A DNA stretch of 64,000 bases from Dictyostelium discoideum (Eukaryota), in NCBI GenBank assembly GCA_000004695.1, contig CM000151.3, positions 2,368,001-2,432,000 of the forward strand, written 5' to 3'. Shown piece by piece: positions 10,828 to 61,906 of the stretch. The position numbers and the translations under genes are program-made. Position 1 is the first letter of the stretch. The number at the start of each line of letters is the position of its first letter. The notes under the pieces are model-generated. The model made no database searches, was not told where the DNA came from, and saw only the letters and a list, made by a program, of their open reading frames with translations.

Positions 10828-11311
10828 TTTTTTTTTTTTTTTTTTTTTTCTTTTGTATAGTTTTCAAACTATACTATAATAGAATGATGGTGATGGTATT
10901 GGTGTTATACCCAAAAAATTATTTAATATTAAAAAATAAAAAAATAATAAAAAAAAGACCACGCGATGAAAAGTAAAAAGAAAAAAAAAAAAATTAGAAA
11001 AAAAAAAAAAAAAATTAAAAAAATCTTGTTGTATGGAAAAAAAAAAAAAATAAAATAAAAAAAAAATAAAAATTAAAAACAAAACATAAAATTTTTGAAA
11101 AATTTTAAAAAAAAAAAAAAAAAAAAAATCAAAAAAAAAAAATTTTCAAGATATGAAAAATGTGATGTTGCTTTGTTGGTTTTAACAACTATTTTTATTT
11201 TTATTTTTTATTTTTACCAACGTGTCAAATATTTACATATATATATATATTTTTATTATTTTTTTTATTATTATTACTATTTTAATTATTTTAATTATTT
11301 TGGTAATTTTA

Positions 11312-13532: not shown

Positions 13533-14876
13533 TTATTTTGAAACTTTTTTTTCTAATTTCTTTTCTTCTTTTTTTTCTTCTTTTTTAAGTTCTTTTTCTA
13601 ATTTTTTTTCTTCTTTTTTAGCTTCTTTAACAGATTTTCTTTTATCTTTATCAGATAATGGAGTTGAAGGTGCACTAAAGAATGCATTTGATGGTGTGGA
13701 TGATGTTGAAACATAAAAATTATTTGAAGTATTAGTATTGGAGGAAGAGGATGGTGGTAGTGGTGGTTGTTGTTGTTGTTGTTGTTGTTGCTGTATATTT
13801 GTTGAATTGGTAGGTATTGATTTAATTCTAGTAGGTGATGGTGGTGGTATACCATTTCCATTTAAATAAGTTGTTTGAAATAGTTGTAAACTTAATAATA
13901 AAGATTTCTTTAAATTATCACAACTATCTAATAAATTTAAATTATTAATTACTTTCTTTTCAATATCTTCCAATTTCAAATCAAATTGTTTTTTTGGTGC
14001 ATCGACTGCAGAGGATGATGATGATGAAGAAGAGGAGGATGTTGAAGATTTAATACCTAATAAAGTTCTAATTGATTTTAAATCTTGTGTAATTGCAATA
14101 CCAGTTTGACGTGATGTAGTTGAAGAGTCGGAATCAACATCAATATCAATCTCTGTCTTTATGATTTCTAAATTTATAAATTTCAAAAGTTTCAATAATC
14201 TAATATGGTCCTCTAATTCATCTCTTTTCTTCTCTAATGACTCTACACTGGTACCTAATCTATCTTTACAATCATTTTGATTCTTTAAATTATCTTGAAG
14301 ATCTTTCATCTCTTTTTTATAGACCTCTCTCTTTTGTCTTAACAATTCTTTTCTAGCTTCATCGATTTTCTTAACACCACCACTACCAATATTACCTCCT
14401 TCTTCATCGTCACCATCGTCGCCATATCCTTCTTGTTGGTTTTGTTGATCATAATCACCACCATCGTATTGTTGTTGTTGTTGTTCTTGACCACCGTCAT
14501 AATAGTATTGTTGACCATCTTCACCAGTGTAATATAGTTGGCCATCTTCACCTTCGTAGTATTGTTGTTGTTGTTGATCTTGAGCATCATCATAATTGTC
14601 TTGTTGATAATCACCAGTTTGATCTTGATTTAAATATTCGAAATAATTTGCAGGAACTCTACCAACATTACCATTGAGATCACCATTCCACCAACCATCT
14701 TCAAAATCTTGTGTAATACATATAACATCATTCTCTTTGAAACTAATCTCTGTATCGTCAGCTGCATCATAATCATATAACGCTCTTACCCAAATTGGTT
14801 CAAAATTATAATTGTCATAATATTCTTCACCACCAACATCATTATTATTATTTTCATCATATTCTTCGTTATTCAT
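13533..14876 (-). CDS. SH3-domain protein with a coiled-coil region and a K/E-rich tail; 447 aa, apparently single exon.
   Basis: N-terminal SH3 signature: ALYDYDAADDTEISFKENDVICITQDFEDGWWNGDLNGNVGRVPANYFEY. It is followed by Q/Y/D-rich low complexity, a heptad coiled coil (KIDEARKELLRQKREVYKKEMKDLQDNL...) and KKEEKKLEKELKKEEKK. Confidence 0.65.
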   Translation of the reverse strand: MNNEEYDENNNNDVGGEEYYDNYNFEPIWVRALYDYDAADDTEISFKENDVICITQDFEDGWWNGDLNGNVGRVPANYFEYLNQDQTGDYQQDNYDDAQDQQQQQYYEGEDGQLYYTGEDGQQYYYDGGQEQQQQQYDGGDYDQQNQQEGYGDDGDDEEGGNIGSGGVKKIDEARKELLRQKREVYKKEMKDLQDNLKNQNDCKDRLGTSVESLEKKRDELEDHIRLLKLLKFINLEIIKTEIDIDVDSDSSTTSRQTGIAITQDLKSIRTLLGIKSSTSSSSSSSSSSAVDAPKKQFDLKLEDIEKKVINNLNLLDSCDNLKKSLLLSLQLFQTTYLNGNGIPPPSPTRIKSIPTNSTNIQQQQQQQQQPPLPPSSSSNTNTSNNFYVSTSSTPSNAFFSAPSTPLSDKDKRKSVKEAKKEEKKLEKELKKEEKKEEKKLEKKVSK

Positions 14877-15048
14877 TTTTATTTTTATTTCTATTATAAT
14901 TACAAATTATTTAATAAACTAATATACTACAATTTTTTTTTTTTTTAATACAGTTTTTTTTTTTTTTTTTATTTTATTATTTTTAAATATATACTATTAC
15001 AAGGAAAAAATATGTAAAAACAAAAAAAAAAAAAAAAAACTGTTAGGG

Positions 15049-32264: not shown

Positions 32265-32682
32265 ATGATCAGAAAACGAATACTATTATTAATTCTAATA
32301 ATAATAGTAATATTACAAATTTTTAGGGTTGAAGGAAATCCAGCAATTCAAATTTATGATGTTTCTAGTGAAGAATACTCATATAATAAATATCCAACAA
32401 ATACAAATGACAAATATTGTAATTTTTTTTTCTTAATATTTGTAACCGATACTTCAGATACTGGAGTTCAATTAAAAATAAAAACCAACGATTCAGACGC
32501 AACAATTTCAACACCAGCATTTAAAAATATTTCAAGTCAAGTTCTTCCAATTTATGTAAATACTAAATCACCAAATGATTATTCATTATTAATTACGGCA
32601 GAATATGATAATGATACATCAATTTATAGTAGTATTATAATTAATTATTCTTGTCAATGTTTGTATTGATTATTTTTTTAAG

Positions 32683-32741
<59 letters not shown>

Positions 32742-35700
32742 AAATAAATAATTAATTAAATAATTAAATAAATTAAATAGATATTCCACGAGAATCAATG
32801 AAAATAAATTTATATCATACTGGTAAATATAAGCATCCAATTTACCCATTTTCAACAATAATGTACATTACAGGATTAAAATACCCATTGGGTCAATTAC
32901 AAGTTGACAAACCGTATAATGTAAAAGTTGATAATATAAGGCCATTTGTCTATCATATTGGTGACGAATTTAATGGATTTATTAAACCAGATTTTAATAT
33001 ATCACTATGGTTCATGGATAGTTCAAATAATACTTATTCATTAAATTATACAATTCCAAGTTTAATTTATTCAAGTAAGTAATTATTGTTATTATTATTA
33101 TTGTTTTTATTATTATTATTATTTTAAAAATTAATATATTAAATTATAATTTTAAAAATTCAGATTCAAATGTAAAAGAAAAGGATATTACATTTAAAAT
33201 TTATCCTAATCAAACAAATGTTATAGAATTTGGATTTATTTGTCCACCAATTTATTCTATTACATTAAATGAAACAATTGGATTAAGCGACCCATTGTTT
33301 ATTAATGAAAATATAGGTTTAAATCCATGGGCATCTTATGAAATGCCAGGAAAAGGTACAACATTCCTTGGTCAAGTTTCTTCCGATTATTCAATTGGTG
33401 CTCAAATTAATGGCACCTTAACTACAATTTATTATCAATTTTTAAAGGTCTCATGTAAGTTTATTATTATTATTATTATTTTTTTTTATTATTGTTTATT
33501 TTTATTATTTTAAAAAATCATTTTTGTTAATAATTTTAATAATATTATTATTATTGTTTTTTAAATATATAGATAATATTGATAGAAAATTTCCATCTTT
33601 TCAAATTGATTATTCACCACCATTACCTTCACTTTCATCAATATTTTCAATTAAATTTAATTCAACTAAAAAATTTGATTTATTCAATTATTCAATTAGA
33701 TGGTTTGAAAGTTTTTCAAATAGTTATAAATGGCCTTTTGGTTTCGAAAGTGGTCATAATTCAAATTATTCATTCAAGTCATCATTTCTACAATCTGAAA
33801 TCTCTGTAAATCCCTACAACTCACTTTATTTCAATCAAGATCATTCTTTAACGCAAATTAGTAATCAACAAGGTAATTGTTTTTTTTTATTTTTTATTAT
33901 TATTTAATAAAATTATTATATTAATTAAAATAATTTTATTATAAATAATAGTTGTGGATATAAATACATTACCAATATTAGAATTAGAATCATTTAATTC
34001 TACTCATTTATATAATCAAGTTTATTTATTTAAGATTAAAATAAAACCAATTTATCAAAGTAAAGGGTACAGTACTTTTATTAAAATTAATGATAATGTT
34101 AATCAAGTATTAAGATATGACTCAATGCCTGATATCGAAAACAATATATATGAAACTGTTTTAAATTTTCATGAAGGTATATTAAATAGTTTAAATATTG
34201 GTGATTCTTATTCAAGACAATCTCAATTTTATAATCCATTTCAATATTATTCAATTGATCCACTTTTAAAACTTGATTTTAAATATTCTGATATGATTTC
34301 AGTTTTAATTGGTAATGTAACTTATTTAATAAATAACATTGATGTAACAAATAAATCAGTTGATAATATAATTTATTTCAATTATAATGGTACTCAAGAA
34401 CCTAAAGATGATACAATTAATTTCTCATTTTTAATTTTATCTCATGAGTTTAAAGTAACTGGAGTCGTAGATTATGATAATATTACAACTTCAATTTGGA
34501 ATTCAACAATTTCAAAATATCAAATTAAATTTACAGTTCCTGCAAATACTAGACCTGGTCCACTTGGTTTTGCTTTACTTTGTGGTTATTCAAGTTCATT
34601 AATAAGTGATTTCTTACCTTTATCTTCTCAATTAATTATTGAATCTAAACATTTCGATGAATATGGACCAATATTTAGTAATATTGAAAAAGTTAATTCA
34701 ACAAATGAATTTGGTTGGAAATTTACAATAGATGATCCAATTAATGGTTTTGATTATGCTGATATTATAGTTAGAGGTGAAATGGATAGTTCAACTTATA
34801 AATTCCATTTAACAACTCAAAATTTAACAAGAGGTGATAAATTTAATGGTGATTATCAAATTAATATAACTTTACCAAGTAAATGTGCATCTCAAAATTA
34901 TATTATCACACAAGTTAAATTATATGATACTCAAGGTTATTTAGGTGAATTTTCAGTATCCAGTGGATTTAATGGTATTAGAAATGTATTTATAAATTAT
35001 TTATCAGATCCAACAATAAATAAAGTATATAAAACATGTAGTGGTGAAAATGATGGTATCGATAGTTCACCACCAATTTTAACTTCATTCATACCAATAT
35101 TAAAACAAAATAGTGATGGTACTCAATACTTATCATTCAACTTTGAAGCAGTAGATATTGAAAGTGGTTTAAAAGATAAACAATATCCAATTGTTTATAT
35201 CCAAACAACAGATTTAAGAACACTTGAATGTGTATCATCTATTATTTCAATAAATGAAACAACTTCAACCTATAAATGCACTATCAATTTACCAAATGGA
35301 TTCGGATACAATTCAGATATTATTTTCAGTGTTTATGGATTCATTAATAATGGCGGTTATTATAGCGGATATTCAAGCGAATCACTAAATAGTTTATCTT
35401 TTATATATTCAATGAGCGATATATCCATAAACAAAGTAATACAAATTAATACCTGTAGCAAATTTGTATCTGGTGATAGCGAGTTATGGATAACAGGTAG
35501 AGGTTTCAATTCAACAAAACAACAAGTATATGTAAAATATTTTGGAGAACCTGGATTTAATCAAATAATAGTACCAAATAAAGTTTATTGGAGTGCAATG
35601 TTTATTAAAAATATTAAACCAACTGATAAACCATTCATTATCAAAGTTTCGGACTATCCACTCACATCAAATGAATTCACTGTTATTCCTATAGTTTATA

Positions 35701-36860
35701 ATTTTACGATTCCCTTAACACCAACAGAAACACCAACAGAAACACCAACAGAAACACCAACAGAGACACCAACACAAACACCAATACCTACATCATCACC
35801 AATACCAACGAATAAACCACAAACATGTTTAGGTGAACCAGTATGTGGTGGATCAAAACAAGGTTTTTGTTCATCAAGTGGATGTATTTGTTATCCACCT
35901 TGGATTGGTAATGATTGTAATTCACAAGTTATAATTATACCACAACCATCAACAAATACATCACAACCATCAACTGAATTACCAATTATAGAAAACAATA
36001 ATCAAACATCAAATAGTACAAATTATTTATTCAAATCATTGATTTCAATTGTATCATTAAGAGAATTAGATTTTAATTCAAATCAAGTTAATTTATATAC
36101 ATTTGATAAATGGATTTATACACCAATTAATAATATTAAAAGTCAATACTTTACAAGTATTCAAAGTGGTGATACAAAATCAACAAATACATTAACAACT
36201 AATATTACTGTAACTTTAGAATGGTTCAATCAAACGACAATCATTCAATTTGCAAATAATAATATAACAATGAATCCATCAAGTATTAAATATACAATTG
36301 AAATTACAGAATATAAATTTTTAAATCAATTAAATAGTCTTCAACTTGTAATGTCAGCATTATTCGAATCATCAAATTCCAAAGATACTTGTTCATTAAA
36401 AGAATTTGGAGATACAAGTGATGGTGATAATTCAAACTTCTTTAAAATTCAAATTGATGACCATTCACTTTATGGTAGATTCATTAAAAGAGCAATCATC
36501 GATTCAAAAGTATCTTCAATTGAAAATCAATTATTAGATTCAAAAATGAACTCAATTCAAACATCATCAGTATCACAATCATTCATTGGTATTACAATAC
36601 CAAATTATAAACAATCAATAATTATTGATCCAGACTTTTCAGTATTAGTAGATAGTAAACCAGTATCAAATAATGATAATAATTCAATTTGTACATCAAA
36701 TAAATCAAAACTAACAAGTGCTCAACTCGCTGGTATTATTATTGGTTCCGTTGCTTTTGCCACTGTAGTTATTGTATCAGTTGTTTACTTGGTCGTGAAA
36801 AACAGAAAATCAGATTTATTCCAAAGAAAAGTACAAAACAAATTACAAAAAATGAACTGA
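32265..36860 (+). CDS. Type I membrane glycoprotein family, copy A, about 1395 aa. It has a signal peptide, a large N-glycosylated ectodomain, a (TETP)n mucin-like hinge, an EGF-like Cys knot, a stalk, a TM helix and a short basic tail. Exons: 32265..32658, 32781..33074, 33164..33454, 33573..33872, 33952..36860.
   Basis: E1: MIRKRILLLILIIIVILQIFRVEG...NYSCQ + T, then a GTTTGT donor. E2 after AAATAG: YIPRESMKINLYHTGKYKHPIYPFSTIMYITGLKYP...LIYSS + A, then GTAAGT. E3 after AAATTCAG: NSNVKEKDITFKIYPNQTNV...EMPGKGTTFLGQ...KVSC + T, then GTAAGT. E4 after ATATATAG: YNIDRKFPSF...YKWPFGFESGHNSNYSFK...NQQG, then GTAATT. E5 after AATAATAG: VVDINTLPILELESFN...TPTETPTETPTETPTETPTQTPIPTSSPIPTNKPQTCLGEPVCGGSKQGFCSSSGCICYPPWIGNDCNS...LAGIIIGSVAFATVVIVSVVYLVVKNRKSDLFQRKVQNKLQKMN*. 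All exons are phase 1. There are many N-x-S/T sequons. Confidence 0.75.
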
Positions 36861-37346
36861 TCAGTTAATTTAATTCAAATATTCTAATTAAAAATCTTGG
36901 AAAATAAAAATTATTATTTTTTTTATTAATTTTTAAAAATTTCTTTATGCATTTACTTATTATTTATTTGTCTTTTCTTATGTATATGTAAAAAAAAAAA
37001 TTTCTACTGTAGTGGTTCAACAAAAAAAAAATTAAAAACAAATTAATTAGGTTTACCCACACATTTATTATTTATTTGAAATTATTAAAATTTTTCCAAT
37101 ATTTAAAAATGATGATGTTTAAATTTTTTTATTTTTATTGTTGTTGAAGTGTTAATAAATATTAAACCATTCCTAATGTCATAGTGTATAGATAGATTTA
37201 TATTCTCTCCAATCTTTGGCACAGGATCGTTTGGTAGGTTTATCAGGTTTAATAGTTTTAACAGTTCAACATGTTTAACAGACTGGAAATAAAAAATCTT
37301 CCAATTGAAATTTATTTATTTTATTTTATTTTATTTTATTTTGTTT

Positions 37347-39060
37347 TTATTCATTAAGTTTCATTTCATATAATTTAGCAATATCATCTTCATAATCAGA
37401 AGCTTTTTCAGCAGATTTTTCACAATTAACTTCATTTACATCTTCACCCTTTGAATTTTTAGGTTCAATTTGTTGAACCACTTGAGTCAACTCATCAAAT
37501 TCATCGCTGATTGTTGAGTAACCTTCAACAAATTCTCGTTCACAAGAATTGGAATCATCGAGTAAATTATCAAAGAATTGACCATCGATAAAAGTGTTGA
37601 AAAGTTTTAAACAGTTTGTTTCTTTGGTATGTTTTTTGACAATATTTAATATTTTGGCAATGCCCTCCAAATAGTAATAAAAAGAATTTTTTCGAGCTTT
37701 AGATGCTGAATAATTCTGTTTCAAACATTCAAGACAATCGTTCTGTATTAAGTAAGGCAATTGCAGAGTTGAGAGTATAATTGATTTAATGTCAACTAGT
37801 AATGATGTTGATCTTTTAGAACAAAACATTTGGACATTAGGTAATATCACTGGTGATTCATTCCAAAATAGAGATAGTGTACTCAATTAAGGTATAGTAT
37901 TACATTTGATAGAAATATTGAAAACTCATTCAAAGAAATCACTAGTTTCAAATGTAGCTTGGGTCATTAAAAATCTATGTCGTGGTGTACCACGTACTGA
38001 ATTTAGACTCGTTAAGCCACTATTACCATCAATAAAGAGTTGCTCTTAACTTGGCATAAAGAAGCTGATGTCATATCAGAAGCATTGTGGGCATTATCAT
38101 GCTTGACCGAATCAACCAATGAAGAGCATGAGATCTTTGACAATATTATATCTATGGGATTGGTTGAGGTTATCATTGAAATCATTTTCGAATCAGATCA
38201 AAAAGATTGTATTAAATACGGATTCAATACAATTGGTAATATGCTTTCAGGTTTCTATGACGTTATAGAGTATTTGTTACAATGTAATGTATTGAAAGTG
38301 TTTCCTAAAATCTTATCATCACCATCAGAAGCATTGGTGACGTGAGGTTATTATTTTTTATTATATATTACCAATGGTCCAACAGATCAAGTCCAAAGAG
38401 TCATAGACGAATGTTTGCTTAAAAGAGCTATTGAAACCGGTAAAAACTCATCGATCAATTTAAGAACAAAACTTGAAGCCACCTGCGCTATTGCTAAGGC
38501 TATCTGTGGTGCCTCAACTCTGCAATTGCCTTACTTAATACAGAATTATGAATTTCATTCCCTACAATATAATTTGTATGTTTTGAAGATCCTGATGCAA
38601 CATTTGTTAATGCCCATGATGCTTCGTATTGAATTGAAGTATCTGTTTCATCAACTAAATATCTATGTAAAATTAGTACTAACCCTGAACTAATAACTCT
38701 ATCAATTTGTGGATTATTATCTTTTTTTTATAATAAATAATAAAAAAAAAAAAAAAAAAGTCATTTAAAAAAAAAAAGTCAATTTAAAAAAAAAAAAGTC
38801 AATTAAAAAAAAAAAAAAATAAAAATAAAAAACTTACCATCAGATAAAATTTCTCTAACACATTTAACTGCTTCATATCTTTCTTGTCTATTTGGTGATG
38901 AAATATTTTTAAAAATTAAATAAAATTTATCATTTTGAGTATATATATATAATTAATAAAAATTAATTATTTAAACAAATTGAAAAAATAAAAAAATAAA
39001 AAAAACTTACTAAGGTATTTTGATGTAATGATTCATCGATATGGTGTATGTGTCAAAATA
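37347..39060 (-). pseudogene. Importin-alpha (karyopherin alpha, armadillo-repeat) paralogue, disrupted. The N-terminal exons and ARM1-2 are on the minus strand (39060..38540). A 733-bp internal block (37774..38506) is inverted, so its ARM3-9 code sits on the plus strand and carries nonsense and frameshift lesions. The C-terminal region is on the minus strand (37740..37347).
   Basis: Minus strand 38900-38540: NISSPNRQERYEAVKCVREILSD | NPQIDRVISSGLVLILHRYLVDETDTSIQYEASWALTNVASGSS (compare importin-alpha PPIDxVIQAGVVPRFVEFL...LQFEAAWALTNIASGTS). Plus strand 37774-38506: SIIDLMSTSNDVDLLEQNIWTLGNITGDSFQNRDSVLN*GIV...LVSNVAWVIKNLCRGVPRTEF...DVISEALWALSCLTESTNEEHEIF...IKYGFNTIGNMLSG...ITNGPTDQVQRVIDECLLKRAIETGKNSSINLRTKLEATCAIAKAICGAS. 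These are ARM signatures (NLCRG, ACWALSYL, RAIGNI) with TAA and TGA stops and a 1-nt deletion. Perfect 33-bp inverted duplications lie at 37741-37773 and 38507-38539 (TTCTGTATTAAGTAAGGCAATTGCAGAGTTGAG and its reverse complement). Confidence 0.5.
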
Positions 39061-39169
39061 TTTTTAAAATTATGGATTTAAAAAAAAAAAAAAAAAAAAT
39101 TATTTGAAAATATTTTTTTTTTTTTTTAAATATTAAATTTTTTATTTTTAAATCTTAATAGGAGTTGAT

Positions 39170-39490
39170 AATATAATTTATTTCAATTATAATGATACTC
39201 AGGCCACAGTGATCTTCAGCTACATTCTCACTTTTTATTTTAAATAGTAGTAATACAGATATGATCTAATATATATTTCAATAGTTTCAAAAAATCAAAT
39301 TAAATTTACAGTTCTTACAAATACTAGACCTGATCCACTCAGTTTCTTTTTAATTAGTACTTATCAATCTTCAATAACAAATGATATGTTTCCTTTATCA
39401 TCACAACTATTAATTGTTTCTAAACATTTCAATGAATATGGACCAATATTGACTATGGCGGTTATTATAGCGGATATTCAAGCGAATCAC
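39170..39490 (+). pseudogene. Fragment of a family ectodomain exon (E5), 5'- and 3'-truncated, with an internal deletion of about 690 bp.
   Basis: 39170-39420 matches B 42880-43165 (VDNIIYFNYN..T...KYQIKFTVLTNTRPDPLSFFLISTYQSSITNDMFPLSSQLLIVSKHFNEYGPI) with substitutions. At 39445 it jumps directly to the B 43862-43900 equivalent (GGYYSGYSSESL), then stops in TAA. There are no flanking exons. Confidence 0.5.
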
Positions 39491-39977
39491 TTATAAAGGA
39501 AATTCCTTTATATAACAAAGGAAAATAATAATGAAAAAAAAGATATTAATATTTAAAATTAATTTAATATTTTTTATCATTTTTATTATAATATCAACAA
39601 ATAATTTTATTTTATTATTCTCTGTGTATTGGTGATTTTTTTTTTTTTTTTTTTTTTTTATAAATTAAAATTCATTGTTCCATAATTTAAATTAAATAAA
39701 GAAATTTATTGTGCATTTTAAAATTAAAATAAATAAACATATTTATTATTTTTTATTGTTTATTGTTTATTGTTTATTACTTTAAAATTAAAATTCTTTA
39801 TTTGATAATATAAATATAACTACTTTACATTTAAATAAACCTATTGATTGATTTTTGTTTAATCCTTTAAATTAAAACTCTTTATTTGGTAATTTAATTA
39901 AAAATGAATAACTGCTTTATATTTTTTTATATTATATTATTTTTTTTTTTAAATTTTTTTATTTTTTTTCTTTGTTT

Positions 39978-40011
<34 letters not shown>

Positions 40012-40532
40012 TTTTTTAAAAAATATATTTTACTAAAATTTTTCAAAATTAATTATTAAAAAAAGGCACAATAGAAAATTCAATAACCAAAATTTTTTTT
40101 TTTGATTTTTTTTATTATATTTTTTTATTTTTTTATTTGGCTAAATTATTACTAAACAAAAAATGGTATACATTTGTAGAGGTTGTAATCAACCTAAAAA
40201 AGAACAATGTCAATGCAAACAACTACTAGCAACATTAGGAACACAACAAAAACTAATACAAGCACAACAACAACTAATACAACAACAAAATCCAAACACA
40301 AATCATATTATGCCAAGTCTTCAATCTGATGAATTCACAACTAATACAACAAAATCCAAACACAAGTCATATTATGCCAAGTCTTCAAGCTAATGGATTT
40401 ATAACAACTAAACAAGGTATTTTGGACTAAATAAACAAAATCTTCAACAAATAAAACATAAATGATTTTATTCCAGATCCAACTCTACCAAACAAATTTT
40501 ATGTTAGTATTAGAAATTAAATAAATTAAACA

Positions 40533-40580
<48 letters not shown>

Positions 40581-40809
40581 GTACCATTTATAATGTGTTT
40601 GTTGGGATCAAAAAAAAGAAATAAAAAATAAAAACAATGAAATTTTGTTGTGAGGTAGTCTTGAAATTCAAAAAATATTTTTTTTAATTTTTTTTTTAAA
40701 ATATCTTTTTATAAATATCTTTTTATAAATATCTTTATCAAATCGTAAAAAAAAAAATGGGGAACGTTTTTTTTTTTTTTTTTTTTATTTTTTTTTTTAA
40801 AAAAAAAAA

Positions 40810-43800
40810 ATGATAAAGAAAATTTTATTAATAATCCTAACATTGGTGATAATAAATAGCTTTTCAACAATAAATAATTTAATAATTGGGGTTGAAGGAC
40901 AGTTTCAATTGTATGATATTACAAATCAAGAAGAAGGTGCTTATAATAGATACCCAGATTCAACAAATCAAAAAATTTGTTCATATGTTTTTTCGATTGC
41001 AATAGTTGATTACTCGAATAGTGGGGCAACTTTGAATGTTTTCACCAATGATACAGATGCAATGGTCTATCAAATCATTAGGAAAGAATATGGAGGAATT
41101 GCCACAGTTATAGTTAAAAATAAAACACCAAATACTTATACATTATTAATAAATGCAACATTGCAAAATGGTCAAAATATTTATAAGAATATCTCAATAA
41201 CTTATTCTTGTGAATGTTTGTATATAAAATTTAAAATTAAAAAAACAAAAATAAATAATTAATTAATTTCAATACCAATTTTATATAGATATCCCTCGAG
41301 AATTGATGAAGGTCAATGTTTTAACAAGTAACAATTATAAATTTACAATTAATCCTTATACAACATTAATACACTTTACAGGTTTAAAATATCAAATATC
41401 TTATCTAAATGTTTCAAGTCCTTCTTGGATAAACATAAATAATTTTTATTCAAATTTATTATATGTTAGTGTAGATTTTAATAAATATAATTTTGTACCA
41501 GAGTCTAATATATCAATACTTTTCTTGGATAGTTCAGATCAACAATATACTGTGAATATTACAATTCCTTTTTTTTATTTTTCAAGTAAGTATAATAATT
41601 AAATTTAAAAAAAAAAAAATAAGATATTAAAATTATTATTATTATAAGAAATGAATGTAGAAGAAAAGGATATTACATTCAAGATCTATCCAAACCAAAC
41701 CGATGTTACAGTACTTGGAGTTAATTGTTCACCAGTTTACTCTATTACATTAAATGAAACCATTGAATATGATCCATTATTTATTGAAGATGTTTCACGT
41801 CGTATGCCTACTCCATCATATGAAATACCAGGAAAAGGTACAACATTCATTGGTTATGTTTATACACAATATTCTATTTTCGCACAAATTAATAACTCAT
41901 TAACAACAATTTATAGTAACCCAAATTTAAATGTTTCAAGTAAGTTTTTTAAAATTAAATTCAATTACTTTTTAATATATACATATATCAAAGATTAATT
42001 TCTATTGACATTATTTAAAAAAAAATGAATAGAAAACTTTAATTTTACATTTCCAAATGTCATTGTTGAACCAGTATCATTACCTTTAATATTAAACTCA
42101 ACAATGTTTTCATTTGGGTTCACTTCAAGTTTTCAGTATGCAATTTTTCCATTTTATTTTAGATGGAATTTAGGTTTTCAATATATCTTTAGTTGGCCAT
42201 TTGGGTTTGAAAGTGGTCAAAATTCAAACTATTCTTTAAAAGTATCATTTTTAAAACCCACGTATTCGCCAAACAATTTTGGTTTATTGACCTTTAATAA
42301 TGAAAATTTTATTATTCAAATAGACAATAGTAAGTATATATACATATAATCATTAATATTCTAATATACATATATAATCATTAATATTCTAAACTACTAC
42401 TGAATAACACACACACACACCCCACACACAAACAAGTACTAACATTAAAAAATATTTTTAAAAATAGCGATAAATTCATCATTACTACCATTAGAATTAG
42501 AATCATGTAAAGTTATATACCTTTTTGAACAATTTCATTTATTAATAATTAAAATAAAACCAACATATAAAGAGATTGGTTATAATCTTTTCATTCAAAT
42601 TAATGATGATGCAAATGCAATATATAGACAAGAATCATTGGTAGATGCTGAAAATAATATATATGAAATTGTTTATGATTTTAAAGGGCGTGGATTTTCA
42701 GTTTTATCTATTGGAGATTCAACTTTTAAAAAGAGTCAAGTTTATTATGTAAATAGTTATTTTTCAATTAATCCATTTTCAGTTATAGATTATAAAGCTC
42801 CAACAATATTACCTGTTTTAATAGAAAATATTACATTTTTAAAAAATTATATTGATGTGGCAAATAAATCAGTTGATAATATAATTTATTTCAATTATAA
42901 TGGTACTCAAGCCCATAGTGATCCTTCAGCTTCATTCTCACTTTTTATTTTAAATAGTAATACCACAGAATCTAATATAGTTTTCGATAGTTTAAAGTTT
43001 GCAACTTGGAATTCAACAATTTCAAAATATCAAATTAAATTTACAGTTCTTGCAAACACTAGACCTGGTCCACTCAGTTTCTTTTTAATGTGTGGTTATC
43101 AATCTTCAATAACAAATGATATGTTTCCTTTATCATCACAACTATTTATTGTTTCTAAACATTTCGATGCGTATGGACCAATATTTAGTAATATTGAAAA
43201 AATTAATTCACCAAATGAATTTGGTTGGAAATTTACAATAGATGATCCAATTAATGGTTTTGATTATGGTGATATTATAGTGAGAGGTGAAATGGATAGT
43301 TCAACTTATAAATTCCATTTAACAACTCAAAATTTAACAAGAGGTGATAAATTTAATGGTGATTATCAAATTAATATAACTTTACCAAGTAAATGTGCAT
43401 CTCAAAATTATATTATCACACAAGTTAAATTATATGATACTCAAGGCTTTTCAGGTGAATTTTATGTAGTTGGTGAAATGGATGGTATTAAAAATGTATT
43501 TATAAATTATTTATCAGATCCAACAATAAATAAAGTATATAAAACATGTAGTGGTGAAAATGATGGTATCGATAGTTCACCACCAATTTTAACTTCATTC
43601 ATACCAATATTAAAACAAAATAGTGATGGTACTCAATACTTATCATTCAACTTTGAAGCAGTAGATATTGAAAGTGGTTTAAAAGATAAACAATATCCAG
43701 TTGTTTATATTGAAACAATAGAAGTACAAACACTTGAATGTGTATCATCTATTATTTCAATAAACGAAACAGCTGCAACCTATACATGTACTATCGATTT

Positions 43801-45313
43801 ACCAATAGGATTTGGATACAATTCAGATATTATTTTCAGTGTTTATGGATTCATTAATAATGGCGGTTATTATAGCGGATATTCAAGCGAATCACTAAAT
43901 AATTTATCTTTTATATATACAATTAATAATATAACTTTTAATAAAGTAATACAAATCACAAAATGCAGTAAATTTAATTCATTTGATAGCGAGTTATGGA
44001 TAACAGGTAGATGTTTCAATTCAACGCAACAAGTATATGTAAAATATGAAGGAGACTCAAGCTTTAATCAAATAGTACCAACTACAGTTTATTGGAGTGC
44101 AATTTTTATTAAAAATATTAAACCAACCGATAAACCATTCATTATCAAAGTTTCAGACCTACCACTCACATCAAATGAATTCACTGTCAATCCAATAGTT
44201 TATAATTTTATAGATCCAACACCAACACAAACACCAATACCTACATCATCACCAATGCCAACGAATAAACCACAAACATGTTTAGGTGAACCAGTATGTG
44301 GTGGATCAAAACAAGGTTTTTGTTCATCAAGTGGATGTATTTGTTATCCACCTTGGATTGGTAATGATTGTAATTCACAAGTTATAATTATACCACAACC
44401 ATCAACAAATACATCACAACCATCAACTGAATTACCAATTATCGATAACAATAATCAAACATCAAATAGTACAAATTATTTATTCAAATCATTGATTTCA
44501 ATTGTATCATTAAGAGAATTAGATTTTAATTCAAATCAAGTTAATTTATATACATTTGATAAATGGATTTATACACCAATTAATAATATTAAAAGTCAAT
44601 ACTTTACAAGTATTCAAAGTGGTGATACAAAATCAACAAATACATTAACAACCAATATTACTGTAACTTTAGAATGGTTCAATCAAACGACAATTATTCA
44701 ATTCGCAAATAATAATATAACAATGAATCCATCAAGTATTAAATATACAATTGAAATTACAGAATATAAATTTTTAAAACAATTAAATAGTCTTCAACTT
44801 GTAATGTCAGCATTATTCGAATCATCAACTTCCAAAGATACTTGTTCATTAAAAGTATTTGGAGATACAAGCGATGGTGATAATTCAAACTTCTTTAAAA
44901 TTCAAATTGATGATCATTCACTTTATGGTAGATTCATTAAAAGAGCAATCATCGATTCAAAAGTGTCTTCAATTGAAAATCAATTATTAGATTCAAAAAT
45001 GAACTCAATTCAAACATCATCAGTATCACAATCATTCATTGGTATTACAATACCAAACTATAAACAATCAATAATTATTGATCCAGACTTTTCAGTATTA
45101 GTAGATAGTAAACCAGTATCAAATAATGATAATAATTCAATTTGTACATCAAATAAATCAAAACTAACAAGTGCTCAACTCGCTGGTATTATTATTGGTT
45201 CTATTGCTTTTGCCACTGTAGTTATTGTATCAGTTGTTTACTTGGTTGTGAAAAACAGAAAATCAAAAAAATTCCAAAGAAAAGTACAAAAGAAATTACA
45301 AACAATTAACTGA
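40810..45313 (+). CDS. Type I membrane glycoprotein family, copy B, 1378 aa. Exons: 40810..41215, 41289..41585, 41649..41939, 42033..42329, 42468..45313.
   Basis: E1: MIKKILLIILTLVIINSFSTINNLIIGVEGQFQLYDITNQEEGAYNRYPDSTNQKICSY...ITYSCE + T|GTTTGT. E2 after TTATATAG: YIPRELMKVNVLTSNNYKFTINPYTTLIHFTGLKYQ...FYFSS + A|GTAAGT. E3 after TTATAAG: KMNVEEKDITFKIYPNQTDV...EIPGKGTTFIGY...LNVSS + A|GTAAGT. E4 after GAATAG: KNFNFTFPNVIVEPVSLPLILNSTMFSFGF...WPFGFESGQNSNYSLK...QIDN + A|GTAAGT. E5 after AAAAATAG: TINSSLLPLELESC...IDPTPTQTPIPTSSPMPTNKPQTCLGEPVCGGSKQGFCSSSGCICYPPWIGNDCNS...LAGIIIGSIAFATVVIVSVVYLVVKNRKSKKFQRKVQKKLQTIN*. All the TTG 'M' ORFs in the track are internal to these exons. Confidence 0.75.
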
Positions 45314-46048: not shown

Positions 46049-46214
46049 TATCTTTTTTTAAATATCTTTTATTAGCTCAGCAAATCGTAAAAAAAAAAAA
46101 AAAAGCAAAAATAAAAAAAAATGTTTGCTAAAGGGCAAGTTTTTTTTTTTTTTTTTTGTTGTTTTAATAAAAAAAAAAAAACTTATTGCAAGTTTAAATA
46201 AACAAAAAAAAAAA

Positions 46215-46635
46215 ATGATAAAGAAAATTTTATTGATAATCCTAACATTGGCGATAATAAATAGCTTTTCAACAATAAATAATTTAATAATTGGGGTTGA
46301 AGGACAGTTTCAATTGTATGATATTACAAATCAAGAAGAAGGTGCTTATAATAGATACCCAGATTCAACAAATCAAAAAATTTGTTCATATGTTTTTTCG
46401 ATTGCAATAGTTGATTACTCGAATAGTGGAACAAATTTGATGGTTTTCACCAATGACACAGATGCAACAGTCTCTCTAATCAATAAGAAAGAATATGGAG
46501 GAATTGCCACAGTTATAGTTAAAAATAAAACACCAAATACTTATACATTATTAATAAATGCAACATTGCAAAATGATCAAATTATTTATAAAAATATCTC
46601 AATAACTTATTCTTGTGAATGTTTGTATATAAAAC

Positions 46636-46680
<45 letters not shown>

Positions 46681-47037
46681 AAAAAAAAAAAAAAAATAAT
46701 TAACTTTAATATCAATTTTATAGATATCCCTCGAGAATTGATGAAGGTCAATGTTTTAACAAGTAACAATTATAAATTTACACTTTTTCCTTATACAGCA
46801 ACAATACACTTTGCAGGTTTAAAATATCCACTAAATTTGCTAAATGTTTCAAGTCCTTCAAATGTTGCAATGAGCTTAGAGGGATATTCAAATTTATTCT
46901 TTGTTGGTGTAGGATTTGATAAAAATAATTTAATATCAGAGTTTAATATATCAATAAGATTCTTGGATAGTTCAGATCAACAATATACTGTAAATATTAC
47001 AATTCCTTTTTTATATTTTTCAAGTAAGTATAATAAT

Positions 47038-47068
<31 letters not shown>

Positions 47069-50000
47069 GATATTAAAATTATTATTATTTTAAGAAATGA
47101 ATGTAGAAGAAAAGGATATTACATTTAAGATCTACCCAAACCAAACTGATGTTAAAGAATTTGGAATTAATTGTTCACCAGTTTACTCTATTACATTAAA
47201 TGAAACCATTGAATATGATCCATTATTTATTGAAGATATTACAAATAATATTCCAACTCCATCATATGAAATACCAGGAAAAGGTACAACATTCATTGGC
47301 CAAGTTCATACACAATATTCTATTTTCGCAAAAATTAATAACTCATTAACAACAATTTATAGTGATCCAAATTTAAATGTTTTTAGTAAGTTTGTTAAAA
47401 TTAAATTTAATTACTTTTTAATATATACATATATCAAAGATTAATTTCTATTGACATTATTTTAATTTTTTTTTTTAAAAAAATGAATAGATAATTTTAA
47501 TTTTACATTTCCAAATGTCATTGTTGAACCAATATCAGTACCTTTAACATTAAACTCAACAATGTTTTCATTTGGATTCAATTCAAATACCCAGTATGAA
47601 ACATTTTCATTTTATTTTAGATGGAATTTAGGTTTTCAATATATCTTTAGTTGGCCATTTGGGTTTGAAAGTGGTCAAAATTCAAACTATTCTTTAAAAG
47701 CATCATTTTTAAAACCCACATATTCGCCAAACAATTTTGGTTTATTGACCTTTAATAATCGAAATTTAAATATTCAAATAGACAATAGTAAGTATATACA
47801 CATATAAAATCATTAATATTCTAAACTACTACCGAACAACACACACACACTCAAAACAATTACTAACATTAAAAAATATTTTTAAATATAGCAATAAATT
47901 CATCATTACTACCATTAGAATTAGAATCATGTAAAGTTATATACCTTTTTGAACAATTTCATTTATTAAGAATTAAAATAAAACCAACATATAAAGAGAT
48001 TGGTTATAATCTTTTCATTCAAATTAATGATGATGATGCAAATGGAATATATAGACAAGAATCATTGGTAGATGCTGAAAATAATATATATGAAATTGTT
48101 TATGATTTTAAAGGGCGTGGTTTTCAATTTTTATCTATTGGAGATTCAACTTTTAAAAAGAGTCAAGTTTATTATTTAAATAGTTATTTTTCAATTAATC
48201 CATTTTCAGTTATAGATTATAAAGCTCCAACAATATTACCTGTTTTAATAGAAAATATTACATTTTTAAAAAATTATATTGATGTGGCAAATAAATCAGT
48301 TGATAATATAATTTATTTCAATTATAATGGTACTCAAACCCATAGTAATCCTTCAGCTTCATTCTCACTTTTTATTTTAAATAGTAATACCACAGATTCT
48401 AATATAGATTTCAATAGTTTAAAGTTTGCAACTTGGAATTCAACAATTTCAAAATATCAAATTAAATTTACAGTTCTTGCAAACACTAGACCTGGTCCAC
48501 TCAGTTTCTTTTTATGGTGTGGTTTTCGAGCAATAACAAATGATATGTTTCCTTTATCATCACAACTAATAGTTGTTTCTAAACATTTCGATGAATATGG
48601 ACCAATATTTAGTAATATTGAAAAGGTTAATTCAACAAATGAATTTGGTTGGAAATTTACAATAGATGATCCAATTAATGGTTTTGATTATGGTGATATT
48701 ATAGTGAGAGGTGAAATGGATAGTTCAACTTATAAATTCCATTTAACAACTCAAAATTTAACAAGAGGTGATAAATTTAATGGTGATTATCAAATTAATA
48801 TAACTTTACCAAGTAAATGCGCATCTCAAAATTATATTATCACACAAGTTAAATTATATGATACTCAAGGTTATTCAGGTGAATTTTCAGTAGTTAATGG
48901 AATAGATGGTATTAAAAATGTATTTATAAATTATTTATCAGATCCAACAATAAATAAAGTATATAAAACATGTAGTGGTGAAAATGATGGTATCGATAGT
49001 TCACCACCAATTTTAACTTCATTCATACCAATATTAAGACAAAATAGTGATGGTACTCAATATTTATTATTCAACTTTGAAGCAGTAGATATTGAAAGTG
49101 GTTTAAAAGATAAACAATATCCAATTGTTTACATTCAAACAATAGAAGCACAAACACTTGAATGTGTATCATCTATTATTTCAATAAACGAAACAGCTGC
49201 AACCTATACATGTACCATCAATTTACCAATAGGATTTGGATACAATTCAGATATTATTTTCAGTGTTTATGGATTCATTAATAATGGCGGTTATTATAGC
49301 GGATATTCAAGCGAATCACTAAATAATTTATCTTTTATATATACAATTAATAATATAGCTTTTAATAAAGTAATACAAATCACAAAATGCAGTAAATTTA
49401 ATTCATTTGATAGCGAGTTATGGATAACAGGTAGATGTTTCAATTCAACGCAACAAGTATATGTAAAATATGAAGGAGACTCAAGCTTTAATCAAATAAT
49501 AGTACCAACTACAGTTTATTGGAGTGCAATGTTTATTAAAAATATTAAACCAACTGATAAACCATTCATTATCAAAGTTTCAGACCTACCACTCACATCA
49601 AATGAATTCACTGTCAATCCAATAGTTTATAATTTTATAGATCCAACACCAACACAAACACCAATACCTACATCATCACCAATACCAACGAATAAACCAC
49701 AAACATGTTTAGGTGAACCAGTATGTGGTGGATCAAAACAAGGTTTTTGTTCGCCAAGTGGATGTATTTGTTATCCACCTTGGATTGGTAATGATTGTAA
49801 TTCACAAGTTATAATTATACCACAACCATCAACAAATACATCACAGCCATCAACTGAATTACCAATTATCGATAACAATAATCAAACATCAAATAGTACA
49901 AATTATTTATTCAAATCATTGATTTCAATTGTATCATTAAGAGAATTAGATTTTAATTCGAATCAAGTTAATTTATATACATTTGATAAATGGATTTATA

Positions 50001-50740
50001 CACCAATTAATAATATTAAAAGTCAATACTTTACAAGTATCCAAAGTGGTGATACAAAATCAACAAATCCATTAATAACTAATATTACTGTAACTTTAGA
50101 ATGGTTCAATCAAACAAAAATCATTCAATTCGCAAATAATAATATAACAATGAATCCATCAAGTATTAAATATACAATTGAAATTACAGAATATAAATTT
50201 TTAAATCAATTAAATAGTCTTCAACTTGTAATGTCAGCATTATTCGAATCATCAACTTCCAAAGATACTTGTTCATTAAAAGAATTTGGAGATACAAGCG
50301 ATGGTGATAATTCAAACTTCTTTAAAATTCAAATTGATGACCATTCACTTTATGGTAGATTCATTAAAAGAGCAATCATCGATTCAAAAGTATCTTCAAT
50401 TGAAAATCAATTATTAGATTCAAAAATGAACTCAGTTCAAACATCATCAGTATCACAATCATTCATTGGTATTACAATACCAAACTATAAACAATCAATA
50501 ATTATTGATCCAGACTTTTCAGTATTAGTAGATAGTAAACCAGTATCAAATAATGATAATAATTCAATTTGTACATCAAATAAATCAAAACTAACAAGTG
50601 CTCAACTCGCTGGTATTATTATTGGTTCCGTTGCTTTTGCCACTGTAGTTATTGTATCAGTTGTTTACTTGGTTGTGAAAAACAAAAAATCGGTTTTGTT
50701 CCAAAGAAAAGTACAAAACAAATTACAAAAAATGAACTGA
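46215..50740 (+). CDS. Type I membrane glycoprotein family, copy C, about 1380 aa, nearly identical to B as part of a 5405-bp tandem duplication. Exons: 46215..46620, 46724..47023, 47095..47385, 47491..47787, 47892..50740.
   Basis: Same exon/intron structure, phases and splice-site sequences as B; exon lengths 406/300/291/297/2849 against 406/297/291/297/2846 in B. The proteins differ by scattered substitutions, for example E1 ...SGTNLMVFTNDTDATVSLINKKEYGG against B ...SGATLNVFTNDTDAMVYQIIRKEYGG. The C-terminus is ...VKNKKSVLFQRKVQNKLQKMN*. The true ATG is at 46215; track ORF 46125 is an upstream alternative-start artefact. Confidence 0.75.
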
Positions 50741-55296: not shown

Positions 55297-55378
<82 letters not shown>

Positions 55379-57625
55379 GAATCTACAGATTTCGATGGAT
55401 ATGGACCAATATTTAGTAATATTGAAAAGGTTAATTCAACAAATGAATTTGGTTGGAAATTTACAATAGATGATCCAATTAATGGTTTTGATTATGCTGA
55501 TATTATAGTTAGAGGTGAAATGGATAGTTCAACTTATAAATTCCATTTAACAACTCAAAATTTAACAAGAGGTGATAAATTTAATGGTGATTATCAAATT
55601 AATATAACTTTACCAAGTAAATGTGCATCTCAAAATTATATTATCACACAAGTTAAATTATATGATACTCAAGGTATTGGTTGCTACTTTTCAGTATCTG
55701 AATCATTTGTAGGTGGTGGTGTTAATAACCCATTTATAAATTATTTATTAGACTCAACAATAAATAAATTATATAAAAAGTGTAGTGGTGAAAATGATGG
55801 TATCGATAGTTCACCACCAATTTTAACATTATTTACACCACAAGTAGCTATTCCTGCAGATGGACATATGGAAGTATATTTCTCATTTGAAGCAACTGAT
55901 TACGAAAGTGGATTAAAAGATCTTCAATATCCAATGGTTTACGTTGAAGCAATTGAATTTCAAATATTTGAATGTGAAACAATTATTAAATCAAAGAATA
56001 TCACCTCTGCAACCTATCAATGTTACGTTTACTTACCAAGAGGTGTATTGTACACTTCAGAAATTACATTCAGTGTTTATGGATTAATTAATAATGGTGG
56101 TTGTTATGGTGGTTATTCAAGCGACTCACTAAGAATTCTATTCCCGTATAAGTTTTCAATGAAAGCAGTATCATCAGGACTTGCTAAAAGGTTAGATATC
56201 TATAGAGTTTCTCAAATTACAACAAGTGGTGGCGAATTATGGATAATAGGTGCTGGTTTCTTTTCTTCAAATCTTGTAGTATTAATTAAATATTATGGTG
56301 AATCAACATTTACACAAACATCAATACCAACTATAAGTTATCCAAATGCAATGTTAATCAATGATGTCAAACCAACTGATAAACCATTCATTATCAAAGT
56401 ACAAGAAGCTTTCTTTTCAAATGAATTCACTGTTTATCCATTAGTATTTGATATTCGTTTTGTACCACCAATTCCAACAGAATTACCAACAGAATCCCCA
56501 ACACCAAATCCATCATCATCATCTTCTTCAATAGACTCGTCATCGTCAACACCTACATCATCACCAATACCAACGAATAAACCTCAAACATGTTTAGGTG
56601 AACCATTATGTGGTGGATCAAAACAAGGATATTGTTCATCAAGTGGATGTGTTTGTTATCCACCTTGGATTGGTAATGATTGTAATTCACAAGTTATAAT
56701 TATACCACAACCATCAACAAATACATCACAACCATCAACTGAATTACCAATTATCGATAACAATAATCAAACATCAAATAGTACAAATTATTTATTCAAA
56801 TCATTGATTTCAATTGTATCATTAAGAGAATTAGATTTTAATTCAAATTAAGTTAATTTATATACATTTGATAAATGGATTTATACACCAATTAATAATA
56901 TTAAAAGTCAATACTTTACAAGTATTCAAAGTGGTGATACAAAATCAACAAATACATTAACAACCAATATTACTGTAACTTTAGAATGGTTCAATCAAAC
57001 AACAATCATTCAATTTGCAAATAATAATATAACAATGAATCCATCAAGTATTAAATATACAATTGAAATTACAGAATATAAATTTTTAAATCAATTAAAT
57101 AGTCTTCAACTTGTAATGTCAGCATTATTCGAATCATCAACTTCCAAAGATACTTGTTCATTAAAAGTATTTGGAGATACAAGCGATGGTGATAATTCAA
57201 ACTTCTTTAAAATTCAAATTGATGATCATTCACTTTATGGTAGATTCATTAAAAGAGCAATCATCGATTCAAAAGTATCTTCAATTGAAAATCAATTATT
57301 AGATTCAAAAATGAACTCAATTCAAACATCATCAATATCACAATCATTCATTGGTATTACAATACCAAATTATAAACAATCAATAATTATTGATCCAGAC
57401 TTTTCAGTATTAGTAGATAGTAAACCAGTATCAAATAATGATAATAATTCAATTTGTACATCAAATAAATCAAAACTAACAAGTTCTCAACTCGCTGGTA
57501 TTATTATTGGTTCCGTTGCTTTTGCTGCTGTCGTTGTTGTTGCAGCTTCTTATTTTATTATAAAAAAGTGGAAAGACGATAAATTTGTAAAAACATTTAA
57601 TAGAAAATTAAAAAAACTATCATAA
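52797..57625 (+). pseudogene. Type I membrane glycoprotein family, copy D. Its exons E1-E4 are divergent. It has an extra intron splitting E5, and a single in-frame TAA at 56849-56851 where the paralogues have CAA. That gives either a recent pseudogene or a truncated secreted variant lacking the TM. Exons: 52797..53187, 53266..53544, 53671..53985, 54065..54367, 54525..55247, 55389..57625.
   Basis: E1: MNKNFVLYLFYFIFLNYCNSQSLNITDISEANSYIVYPDSSNSQTCSF...SYKCE + T|GTTTGT. E2 after TTAAAAG: LIEFNSLGYKVLLTNNFKKSKSGMNGIIQFTGLKNK...SS + T|GTAGGT. E3 after TTTTTTAG: YYNVDESNSKVVIYPSESTNIIEYGYDNSPLYSVTINKT...ILNIT + A|GTAAGT. E4 after TTATTTAG: KFSKEPFVPNPFIVTYFNSDGIFLLNSSMFTITTSNQFNFL...QWPFGFGSGNNFNYNVS...NI + A|GTATGT. 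E5a after AATTATAG: IAPTVNAP...QLYVTLSS + A|GTAAGT. The intron carries (ATT)24. E5b after TCTACAG: NFDGYGPIFSNIEKVNSTNEFGWKF...FNSN*VNLY... continues in frame after the stop to ...SSQLAGIIIGSVAFAAVVVVAASYFIIKKWKDDKFVKTFNRKLKKLS*. Confidence 0.5.
55290..55380. repeat. (ATT)n microsatellite, about 30 units, inside the copy-D-specific intron.
   Basis: Direct reading. It is flanked by a GTAAGT donor (55248) and a CAG acceptor (55386-55388). Confidence 0.9.
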
Positions 57626-58554
57626 TTAACAAATAAAAAATACTGTGTATTAATTTTTTAAAAGTTTATTCCTTTTTAAAAGGAGTAGTTTAAATAAAGA
57701 TTTTTAAATAATTAATTTTTTCTATGGAATTATTTAAATAAAATTTTTAAAAAAAATATATTTAACTAGTGGATTTTATTTATTTTTAAATTGTTTTAAT
57801 TGTCTTAGAGTTTTTTTGAATTACTTTTTTTAAAAAATAAGAAAGAAACTGATACAATAACAACACAACAGATAATTCATTTGAAAAGAATTTTGAATTT
57901 TCTTGTACTTTGATAATGAATGGTTTTTCAGTTGGTTTGACATCATTAATTAACATTGTATTTGGATAAATTATAGTAGGTATTGATGTTTGTGTAAAGG
58001 TTGATTCACCATGATATTTAATTAAGACTACAAGATTATTTCATTTAATTTTTTTGTATCTACTCTATGCAAAATAGTATTTAAAAAAAAGAATTGATGT
58101 TAAGTTGGTGGTAAATTAAAATTTCTTTGTATGCTGGAAATTGAGATTCTCTAACTTTTTAATTTGAAATTATAATTGGTATAATAATAAAACTTGGGAA
58201 ACTTAATTTTAATTATCTATATGTTGAATGAATACTTTAACATCAGCCTCACTTAAATACTTCCCAGAGGTGGTAAATTTGGTGTTGATTGCAATTAATT
58301 ATTAAAAAAAATTTTTTTTTTTTTTTTTTAAAAAATATTTACTAACATAATCCACTTTTCAATTTCATAAACCAATTTCATTTTTTTAAATCTGACAACA
58401 CTGTTTAAAACTTTTTGATTGCCAAACTCTTTTTCTATATGGTTACCAAAAATCAAAGTGAGTGGTCCATGATTTTTTTAACATTATGGGTACAGTTTAT
58501 TTTGAGCATTAAAATAACAGCAGTAATGTACTCGAATTTGAAACCAATTAATTT

Positions 58555-61440: not shown

Positions 61441-61906
61441 AATGAAACCTAAAAGAATGAATGCTCATTTTCTTCTAGAGGTATTATATTTTATTATTTT
61501 AGATTGAATATAAATATTTGTACTAATTTTTTTTTTTTTTTTTTTTTTTTTTTTCTCTAATTAAAAACAAAAAACTGTTCATTGGATTTTATCGCCAAAA
61601 CCTAAACTTCTGGTCTGAAAAAAAAAAAAATCAATACCAAAAGGTGAAAAAAGAAAAAATAATAAAAAAAAAAAAAATAATAAAAAAAAAAAACAAATAA
61701 AAAAAAAAAATAAAAAAAAAAAGTGTTTGATTTGAAAAATTTAAAAAAAAATATTAAAAAGTGTTTGGTTTGGCCAATCCGCACAATAAAAAAAAAAAAG
61801 GGGGGAAATTTAAATAGAGTTTTTTTAATTTTCTATTAAACATTTTAACAAATTTATCATCTTTCCACTTTCTTATAAAAAAAGTAACTACAATTTATTA
61901 AGCTGA

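Follow-up and report, generated by a model that had tools for sequence, protein, structure and literature searches.

The stretch of DNA analysed here (the window: 64,000 nucleotides of Dictyostelium discoideum, assembly GCA_000004695.1, contig CM000151.3, positions 2,368,001 to 2,432,000 of the forward strand) contains an inactive duplicate of DDB_G0277993, a gene for an uncharacterised importin-alpha-like ARM-repeat protein, and a small inversion inside this pseudogene is confirmed. The 739 bp at 37774-38512 now carry their sense strand on the plus strand, while the parts of the pseudogene on either side of them retain the original minus-strand orientation, and the reversed block is bounded by two perfect, mirror-image copies of a 33-bp sequence that is single-copy in intact relatives. 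Positions are those of the window unless another locus is named.

The strand switch shows in the orientation of the window's blastn matches to the intact gene of each of two relatives, and is laid out below for the gene at locus L002:

Window 38546-39042, minus strand: matches L002 gene 10005-10520 (blastn)
Window 37772-38549, plus strand: matches L002 gene 10520-11298 (blastn)
Window 37415-37772, minus strand: matches L002 gene 11263-11622 (blastn)

Both arms of the repeat match the parental interval 11263-11298, which shows that this sequence, present once in the intact gene, has been duplicated in the window. In gene orientation, the ancestral order A-B-d-C (B of 739 bp, d of 32-33 bp) has become A-d'-B'-d-C, where the prime denotes the reverse complement. 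For the reconstruction of the un-inverted gene, flank A (minus strand, 38546-39100) was followed by the plus-strand block, a single 33-mer, and flank C (minus strand, 37300-37740). In a MAFFT alignment of this reconstruction with five intact genes (L008, L001, L002, L009, and L010), all sequences are collinear with the un-inverted order, and d is present once in each intact gene, between the end of the block and the C flank, i.e., at the distal breakpoint. An earlier note on this DNA, made from the sequence alone, had proposed the inversion of an ARM-repeat block at this site, and the proposal is borne out by the match orientations and by the collinearity of the reconstruction. The peptides on which that proposal drew (...SSKHTNYIVGNEIH, SIIDLMSTSNDVDLLEQNIWTLGNITGDS, ...KAICGAS, TLQLPYLIQN, and DCLECLKQNYSASKARK) were all found in the frames and on the strands claimed for them. 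The parts of the pseudogene are as follows:

37283-39046, minus strand: whole pseudogene locus, an intron-containing duplicate of DDB_G0277993
37283-37349, minus strand: remnant of the 3' untranslated region and stop codon TAA (37347-37349); homology to the parent gene goes no further in the 3' direction
37350-37740, minus strand: C flank, a C-terminal coding remnant (DCLECLKQNYS...KLNE) in original orientation; blastn to L002 11263-11622 and alignment
37741-37773, minus strand: left arm of the 33-bp inverted duplication; native junction with the C flank at 37740/37741, novel junction J1 with the block at 37773/37774
37774-38512, plus strand (now the sense strand): inverted block of 739 bp, roughly ARM3 to ARM9; blastn to L002 10520-11298, 82.7% identity
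38513-38545, plus strand: right arm of the inverted duplication; native junction with the block at 38512/38513, novel junction J2 with the A flank at 38545/38546
38546-38720, minus strand: A flank, the 5' part of exon 3 (ARM1-ARM2: DNNPQIDRVISSGL...ASWALTNVASGSSKHTNYIVGNEIH) in original orientation; blastn to L002 10005-10520 and alignment
38721-38837, minus strand: retained intron 2 (GTAAGT...AG), alignable with its counterpart in each of the five intact genes
38838-38934, minus strand: exon 2 remnant (...SPNRQERYEAVKCVREILSDG); alignment
38935-39010, minus strand: retained intron 1; donor GTAAG kept (39006-39010), acceptor AG changed to AA (38935-38936)
39011-39046, minus strand: exon 1 remnant; the start-codon position reads CAC (39044-39046), with ATG lost; five-gene alignment
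37347-37829, minus strand: open reading frame (ORF) annotated as DDB_G0272594, 160 aa, crossing J1; protein P0108 is identical to the window ORF

The alignment to the five intact genes continues for ~65 nt beyond the stop codon (TTCAATTGGAA... motif), and the acidic tail encoded in the C flank is ~96 nt shorter than that of the parent gene in strain AX4.

The inverted repeat and its junctions

The left arm at 37741-37773 reads TTCTGTATTAAGTAAGGCAATTGCAGAGTTGAG, and its exact reverse complement forms the right arm at 38513-38545, with zero additional matching bases at either end of the repeat. This 33-mer is the element d, which encodes (S)TLQLPYLIQN on the minus strand in the left arm and on the plus strand in the right arm. 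On re-reading the sequence, the left arm is exactly where the earlier note had placed it and the arms are, as claimed, perfectly identical and inverted; the right arm had been placed 6 nt too low (38507-38539), and the block, given there as 733 bp, measures 739 bp. The likelihood that such a repeat arose by chance is negligible, even in AT-rich DNA (22.7% G+C in the window): base composition leads to an expectation of ~5e-16 exact reverse-complement 33-mers in the window, and no inverted pairs of 20-mers with at least five G/C within 2 kb occurred in five shuffles.

Each copy of d keeps one ancestral neighbour, B at 38512/38513 and C at 37740/37741, and the two novel junctions, J1 and J2, lie at sequence that is unique and not of low complexity. 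The A/B site reads CATAAGAGTATA, with no copy of d', in all five intact genes, where it is divided into ...ATTCATAAG followed by AGTATAATT (parental CATAAG / AGTATA). In the window, A ends with ...ATTCATAA (...CATAA), and B is preceded by ...TTGAG and begins (G)AGTATA. The G at 37773 can be read as the parental G, in which case the duplication is 32 bp, the break was blunt, no base was lost, and the frame H-K-S-I-I is kept; as the last base of a 33-bp duplication, with the parental G lost; or as part of a 31-bp duplication combined with a 1-nt stagger. The join of ARM2 to ARM3 described in the earlier note as seamless thus holds (H K S I I) if this G is the parental one; otherwise one G has been lost. 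J1 carries an ambiguity of at most 1-2 nt (AG, with which both d' and parental A end), and J2 has no microhomology. Beyond this ambiguity at J1, no material was gained or lost at the breakpoints, and every base of A, B, d, and C can be aligned to the parent gene, with no foreign insert. A transposon or site-specific invertase was considered and rejected because all sequence in and around the block is parent-gene sequence.

As no d' is found at the A/B site of any of the five intact genes, the second copy of d did not pre-exist the rearrangement. This bears directly on the idea that two 33-bp inverted repeats stood here beforehand, that homologous recombination between them flipped the block and may flip it still, and that the arms are kept alike by gene conversion. 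The complete identity of the arms would be compatible with this idea, and a pair once formed could in principle recombine or convert, but 33 bp is very short for homologous exchange and the block has the same orientation in the window and in a second assembly. Together with the reading of the A/B site, these observations make recombination between older repeats a very improbable origin for the inversion.

A second assembly of the locus

The second assembly (GCA_054883475.1, contig JBTAPE010000001.1) is 99.7% identical to window 36201-41500 along a single collinear alignment. Across the pseudogene there are 0 differences, the distance between the arms is unchanged, and both junctions agree base for base. 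Over these 5.3 kb the two sequences differ only in the lengths of three T runs (4, 8, and 2 nt) and in one mismatch adjacent to a run, all outside the pseudogene at 39632-39639, 39980-39987, and 40767-40768; differences of this sort in T runs are typical of homopolymer uncertainty in one or both assemblies. Judging from the accession series and locus tags, the assembly would belong to the Nanopore and Illumina de novo assemblies of Holland, Ahmed, Levin and colleagues (PMC12745789). The strain is probably AX2-214, as suggested by protein sequences identical to those of AX4.

Misassembly had been named beforehand as an alternative, and is excluded by the identical structure in GCA_054883475.1. 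While Dictyostelium AT-rich DNA is generally difficult to assemble (PMC12745789), no specific support was found for an artefact that hides a block collinear in the genome. Such an artefact is exceedingly improbable when a second assembly reproduces both junctions while differing in nearby homopolymers, when the junction sequences are unique, and when a precise 33-bp duplication is not an expected product of assembly error.

Identity of the duplicated gene

The conceptual protein of the reconstruction matches the Pfam family Arm (9e-20), and residues 3-370 of the un-inverted translation align collinearly, in one stretch, to human importin alpha-3 (PDB 4uae, E = 1e-50), with ~100 more importin-alpha chains also matching. 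The Trp/Asn motifs of ARM2-4 are recognisable as SWALTNVASG, IWTLGNITGD, and AWVIKNLCRG. The ARM similarity first claimed without database searches therefore survived a real search, and the ARM-repeat core resembles the importin alpha family over ~370 residues. The pseudogene differs from that family in its domain content. No Pfam match to IBB (PF01749) was found in the reconstruction, the parent DDB_G0277993 (P0104), or the closest relative, P0001, and none to Arm_3 (PF16186) in the pseudogene, the parent, or P0001. Both domains are found in P0005, a canonical importin alpha, and neither appears in the precomputed Pfam lists of the orthologues P0001-P0004. The earlier description of the locus as an importin-alpha paralogue is thus upheld for the ARM repeats, but the parent is an IBB-less protein and not a canonical importin alpha. 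Because IBB and Arm_3 are absent from both the parent and P0001, 'importin-alpha-like ARM protein' is the accurate label, with the further difference from the family that the window copy is non-functional.

In a large protein collection, the relatives of the pseudogene form four clusters of intact proteins of 512-527 aa at 56-69% identity, from D. discoideum, D. cf. discoideum, D. citrinum, and D. firmibasis, and the D. discoideum cluster contains DDB_G0277993 of AX4. The intact gene follows directly downstream of an ETF-family gene in each of the fetched loci (L001, L002, L008, L009, and L010), and the context in the window is different. The ETF-family neighbourhood of the DDB_G0277993 family is conserved across the four species in the fetched loci. 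By tblastn, there is no second clear copy within the window, where the sole other match is marginal (8643-8813, E = 0.01, 30% over 57 residues). Literature searches for DDB_G0277993 and DDB_G0272594 returned no results.

The locus is an ancient DNA-level duplicate of DDB_G0277993, and not a retrocopy, because both introns are retained and alignable. A processed pseudogene was rejected on the same grounds and for the lack of an A-run past the 3' limit of homology at 37283. In common with other non-processed pseudogenes, the window copy has both introns, homology limited to the gene, multiple disabling lesions, and a neutral substitution pattern; it departs from them in carrying an additional internal inversion and in being annotated, in part, as the protein-coding gene DDB_G0272594.

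Inactivation and age of the inversion

The lesions for which the earlier note considered the gene dead are all present in the block: the stop codons TAA (37888-37890) and TGA (38343-38345), and one nucleotide deleted from a T run (38040-38041). To these are added the loss of the start codon (now CAC) and of the intron-1 acceptor, which reads TAG/G or CAG/G in the discoideum-clade parents and D. firmibasis, AAG/G in D. citrinum, and CAA/A in the pseudogene. Substitutions on the pseudogene branch are spread evenly over codon positions (58/45/45), and those of the orthologues are dominated by third positions (e.g., 45/30/111).

Divergence was estimated as Jukes-Cantor distances over 1229 ungapped columns, with branch lengths obtained by three-taxon arithmetic. 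The pseudogene branch amounts to ~0.143 substitutions per site and those of the parents to 0.04-0.08, and the duplicate would have arisen after the D. citrinum split and just before the D. discoideum and D. cf. discoideum parents diverged. Of the 33 sites of d, 8 differ from the AX4 parent, and these 8 differences are all common to both arms. For an inversion as old as the duplicate itself, identical arms would have a probability of 8e-5, and with conversion between the arms left out of account the 95% bound places the inversion within the last ~32% of the age of the pseudogene. This supports a late inversion, in roughly the last third of the history of the pseudogene, that would have struck an already inactive gene, as both the identity of the arms and the neutral substitution pattern imply. 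The suggestion that the inversion was more recent than the first inactivating mutations agrees with these estimates. Since the gene was by then non-functional, the inversion had no coding consequence, and its biological consequence is probably none.

Syntenic regions in other isolates

Comparison with the orthologous locus, which the earlier note had proposed as a check, was made for two wild D. discoideum isolates (L003 and L007), D. cf. discoideum (L004), and D. citrinum (L005). It yielded traces of the pseudogene in the two isolates, and the block, inverted or un-inverted, is missing from the syntenic site in all four assemblies. L003 retains a 39-nt remnant of the last coding stretch (14874-14912, 95%) in the same place and orientation, and in L007 the 3'-untranslated motif CCAATTGAAAT remains at ~7880-7915; matches to the intergenic region by blastn with a word size of 7 are mostly AT-rich and of low complexity. 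It follows from the remnants in L003 and L007 that the ancestral state of this site, at least in D. discoideum, included the pseudogene, which those two isolates subsequently lost by deletion; for this reason the un-inverted allele cannot be obtained from them.

Mechanism of the inversion

The best explanation, which we hold to be probable though well short of certain, is that an importin-like duplicate decayed to a pseudogene and that its middle was then inverted in place by a staggered break and end joining. In this sequence of events, the A/B breakpoint would have been a blunt or near-blunt double-strand break, and the distal breakpoint would have consisted of two nicks 32-33 nt apart, on opposite strands and flanking d, so that each end carried d as a 5' overhang. 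Once both overhangs had been filled in, non-homologous end joining with 0-2 nt of microhomology would have put the B-d fragment back in the opposite direction, so that mirror-image copies of d came to lie at its two ends. Inverted duplications at breakpoints were explained by the fill-in of staggered breaks for inversions of the Drosophila melanogaster group by Ranz et al. 2007 (PLoS Biol 5:e152, PMC1885836; Fig. 2), and a stagger, and with it a duplication, at one breakpoint only is foreseen in their Fig. S5B. A d that is single-copy in relatives, with each of its present copies next to one ancestral neighbour, is the pattern predicted by such fill-in, and the mechanism would fit the anatomy of the locus exactly. 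The earlier note had arrived at staggered breaks and fill-in from the same repeat; the anatomy is what that model predicts, with the mechanism itself inferred from it, and the duplication left by a staggered break applies to the distal breakpoint and not to the other, which is blunt or has lost 1 nt.

Two other routes would lead to the same product. Serial template switching without a double-strand break, of the kind proposed as fork stalling and template switching (FoSTeS) or microhomology-mediated break-induced replication (MMBIR), would copy A, jump at the d/C boundary, copy d'-B', jump back at B/d, and copy d-C; the predicted product is identical to the observed A-d'-B'-d-C, and J1 permits 1-2 nt of microhomology (AG). 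It is nonetheless an unlikely route, as J2 has no microhomology, the repeat cannot be extended at either end, and there are no templated insertions or extra copied segments. Moreover, the preservation of all parental bases at A/B would be a coincidence for two independent switches and is expected for breakage and rejoining. Less likely again are double-strand breaks 32-33 bp apart on two sister chromatids with their ends joined across chromatids. According to Ranz et al. (PMC1885836), this pattern is indistinguishable from that of staggered single-strand breaks, but three or four independent breaks within 0.8 kb would be needed, two of them just 33 bp apart, which is less parsimonious. Breakage and end joining is favoured by the lack of microhomology at J2 and by the exact conservation of the material.

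It should be noted that several points weigh against decay followed by a staggered break as set out above. The steps of nicking and fill-in leave no trace that separates them from the rival routes. The dating of the inversion presupposes that no gene conversion occurred between the arms. No strain with an un-inverted pseudogene was found among the four syntenic regions, and the ancestral state is derived from the parent and orthologues. Lastly, AX2 and AX4 share descent from NC4, and the second assembly for this reason confirms the sequence without representing an independent lineage.

The inversion shares several properties with those described in Drosophila by Ranz et al.: the duplicated sequence was ancestrally single-copy at a breakpoint, its copies are inverted with one at each end and one ancestral neighbour each, and the breakpoints are without a transposon. 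It is unlike them in scale, with 772 bp inverted and 32-33 bp duplicated, where one Drosophila inversion had gene-sized duplications (one pair of its breakpoints 1,760-1,764 bp apart; PMC1885836), and in lying entirely within one pseudogene of an amoebozoan, with arms that are still identical, so that the junctions can be read to the base. Because the arms are identical and five intact relatives supply the ancestral sequence, the anatomy of the break is resolved at single bases as a blunt break, a 32-33-nt stagger, and 0-2 nt of microhomology. The rearrangement is of a known kind, and the new example, unusually small and clean and located in a mis-annotated pseudogene, extends the staggered-break signature from Drosophila (PMC1885836) to an amoebozoan and to the sub-kilobase scale.

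Annotation of the locus and its neighbourhood

DDB_G0272594, a hypothetical protein of AX4 (160 aa, on the 8.48-Mb chromosome 2), is a chimera across J1: its residues 1-19 come from reading the block in antisense, and the remainder consists of the 33-mer and the C flank. In an exact-protein look-up, the junction-spanning ORF matched no recorded gene of the contig index, and a homology search with the same ORF returned only this AX4 model. In a newer assembly, a 158-aa gene model with a faint Arm match lies over the inverted block (L006 1589-2145, equivalent to window 37789-38345, plus strand) and is probably a second annotation of the pseudogene fragment. Reconstruction by hand rejected a single 80-nt intron for the 158-aa model, as it would fail to span the TAA stop and the frameshift. 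Both DDB_G0272594 and the 158-aa model are better treated as pseudogene fragments than as protein-coding genes.

The block and the parent DDB_G0277993 have perfect runs of 28, 25, 23, and 20 nt in common. Because the block is inverted, a read-through transcript of the locus would bear 739 nt antisense to the DDB_G0277993 mRNA, and it would also hold a perfect 33-bp stem. From these features the dead copy could be put forward as a putative source of antisense or small interfering RNA regulating its parent, a role that we consider very doubtful.

The pseudogene sits between tandem genes of the ComC family (EGF-like, with DUF7035/DUF7034/ComC_SSD), which form a tandem and inverted array at 32265-36860, 40810-45313, 46125-50740, ~55370-57540, and 61897-64000. 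The 3' ends of these paralogues are 96-98% identical and their 5' parts ~80-87%, which suggests concerted evolution of the 3' ends. At 39047-39577 (plus strand), two decayed ComC-family fragments (~68-76% identity to internal parts of the neighbours) abut the 5' end of the pseudogene, and the duplicate may have landed in or beside a ComC-family member now destroyed. Two AX4 accessions, EAL70416.1 and EAL71086.1, belong to the neighbouring ComC protein P0045, as would fit a locus inside the known AX4 chromosome-2 duplication; in that case, AX4 would hold the pseudogene and its inversion twice. A second inverted repeat in the window, at 56270-56407 and 57900-58037 (138 nt, 94% complementary, arms 1492 nt apart), flanks the 3' part of another ComC-family gene copy. 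The segment appears collinear with its relatives, and the repeat is more suggestive of an inverted partial duplicate than of an inversion.

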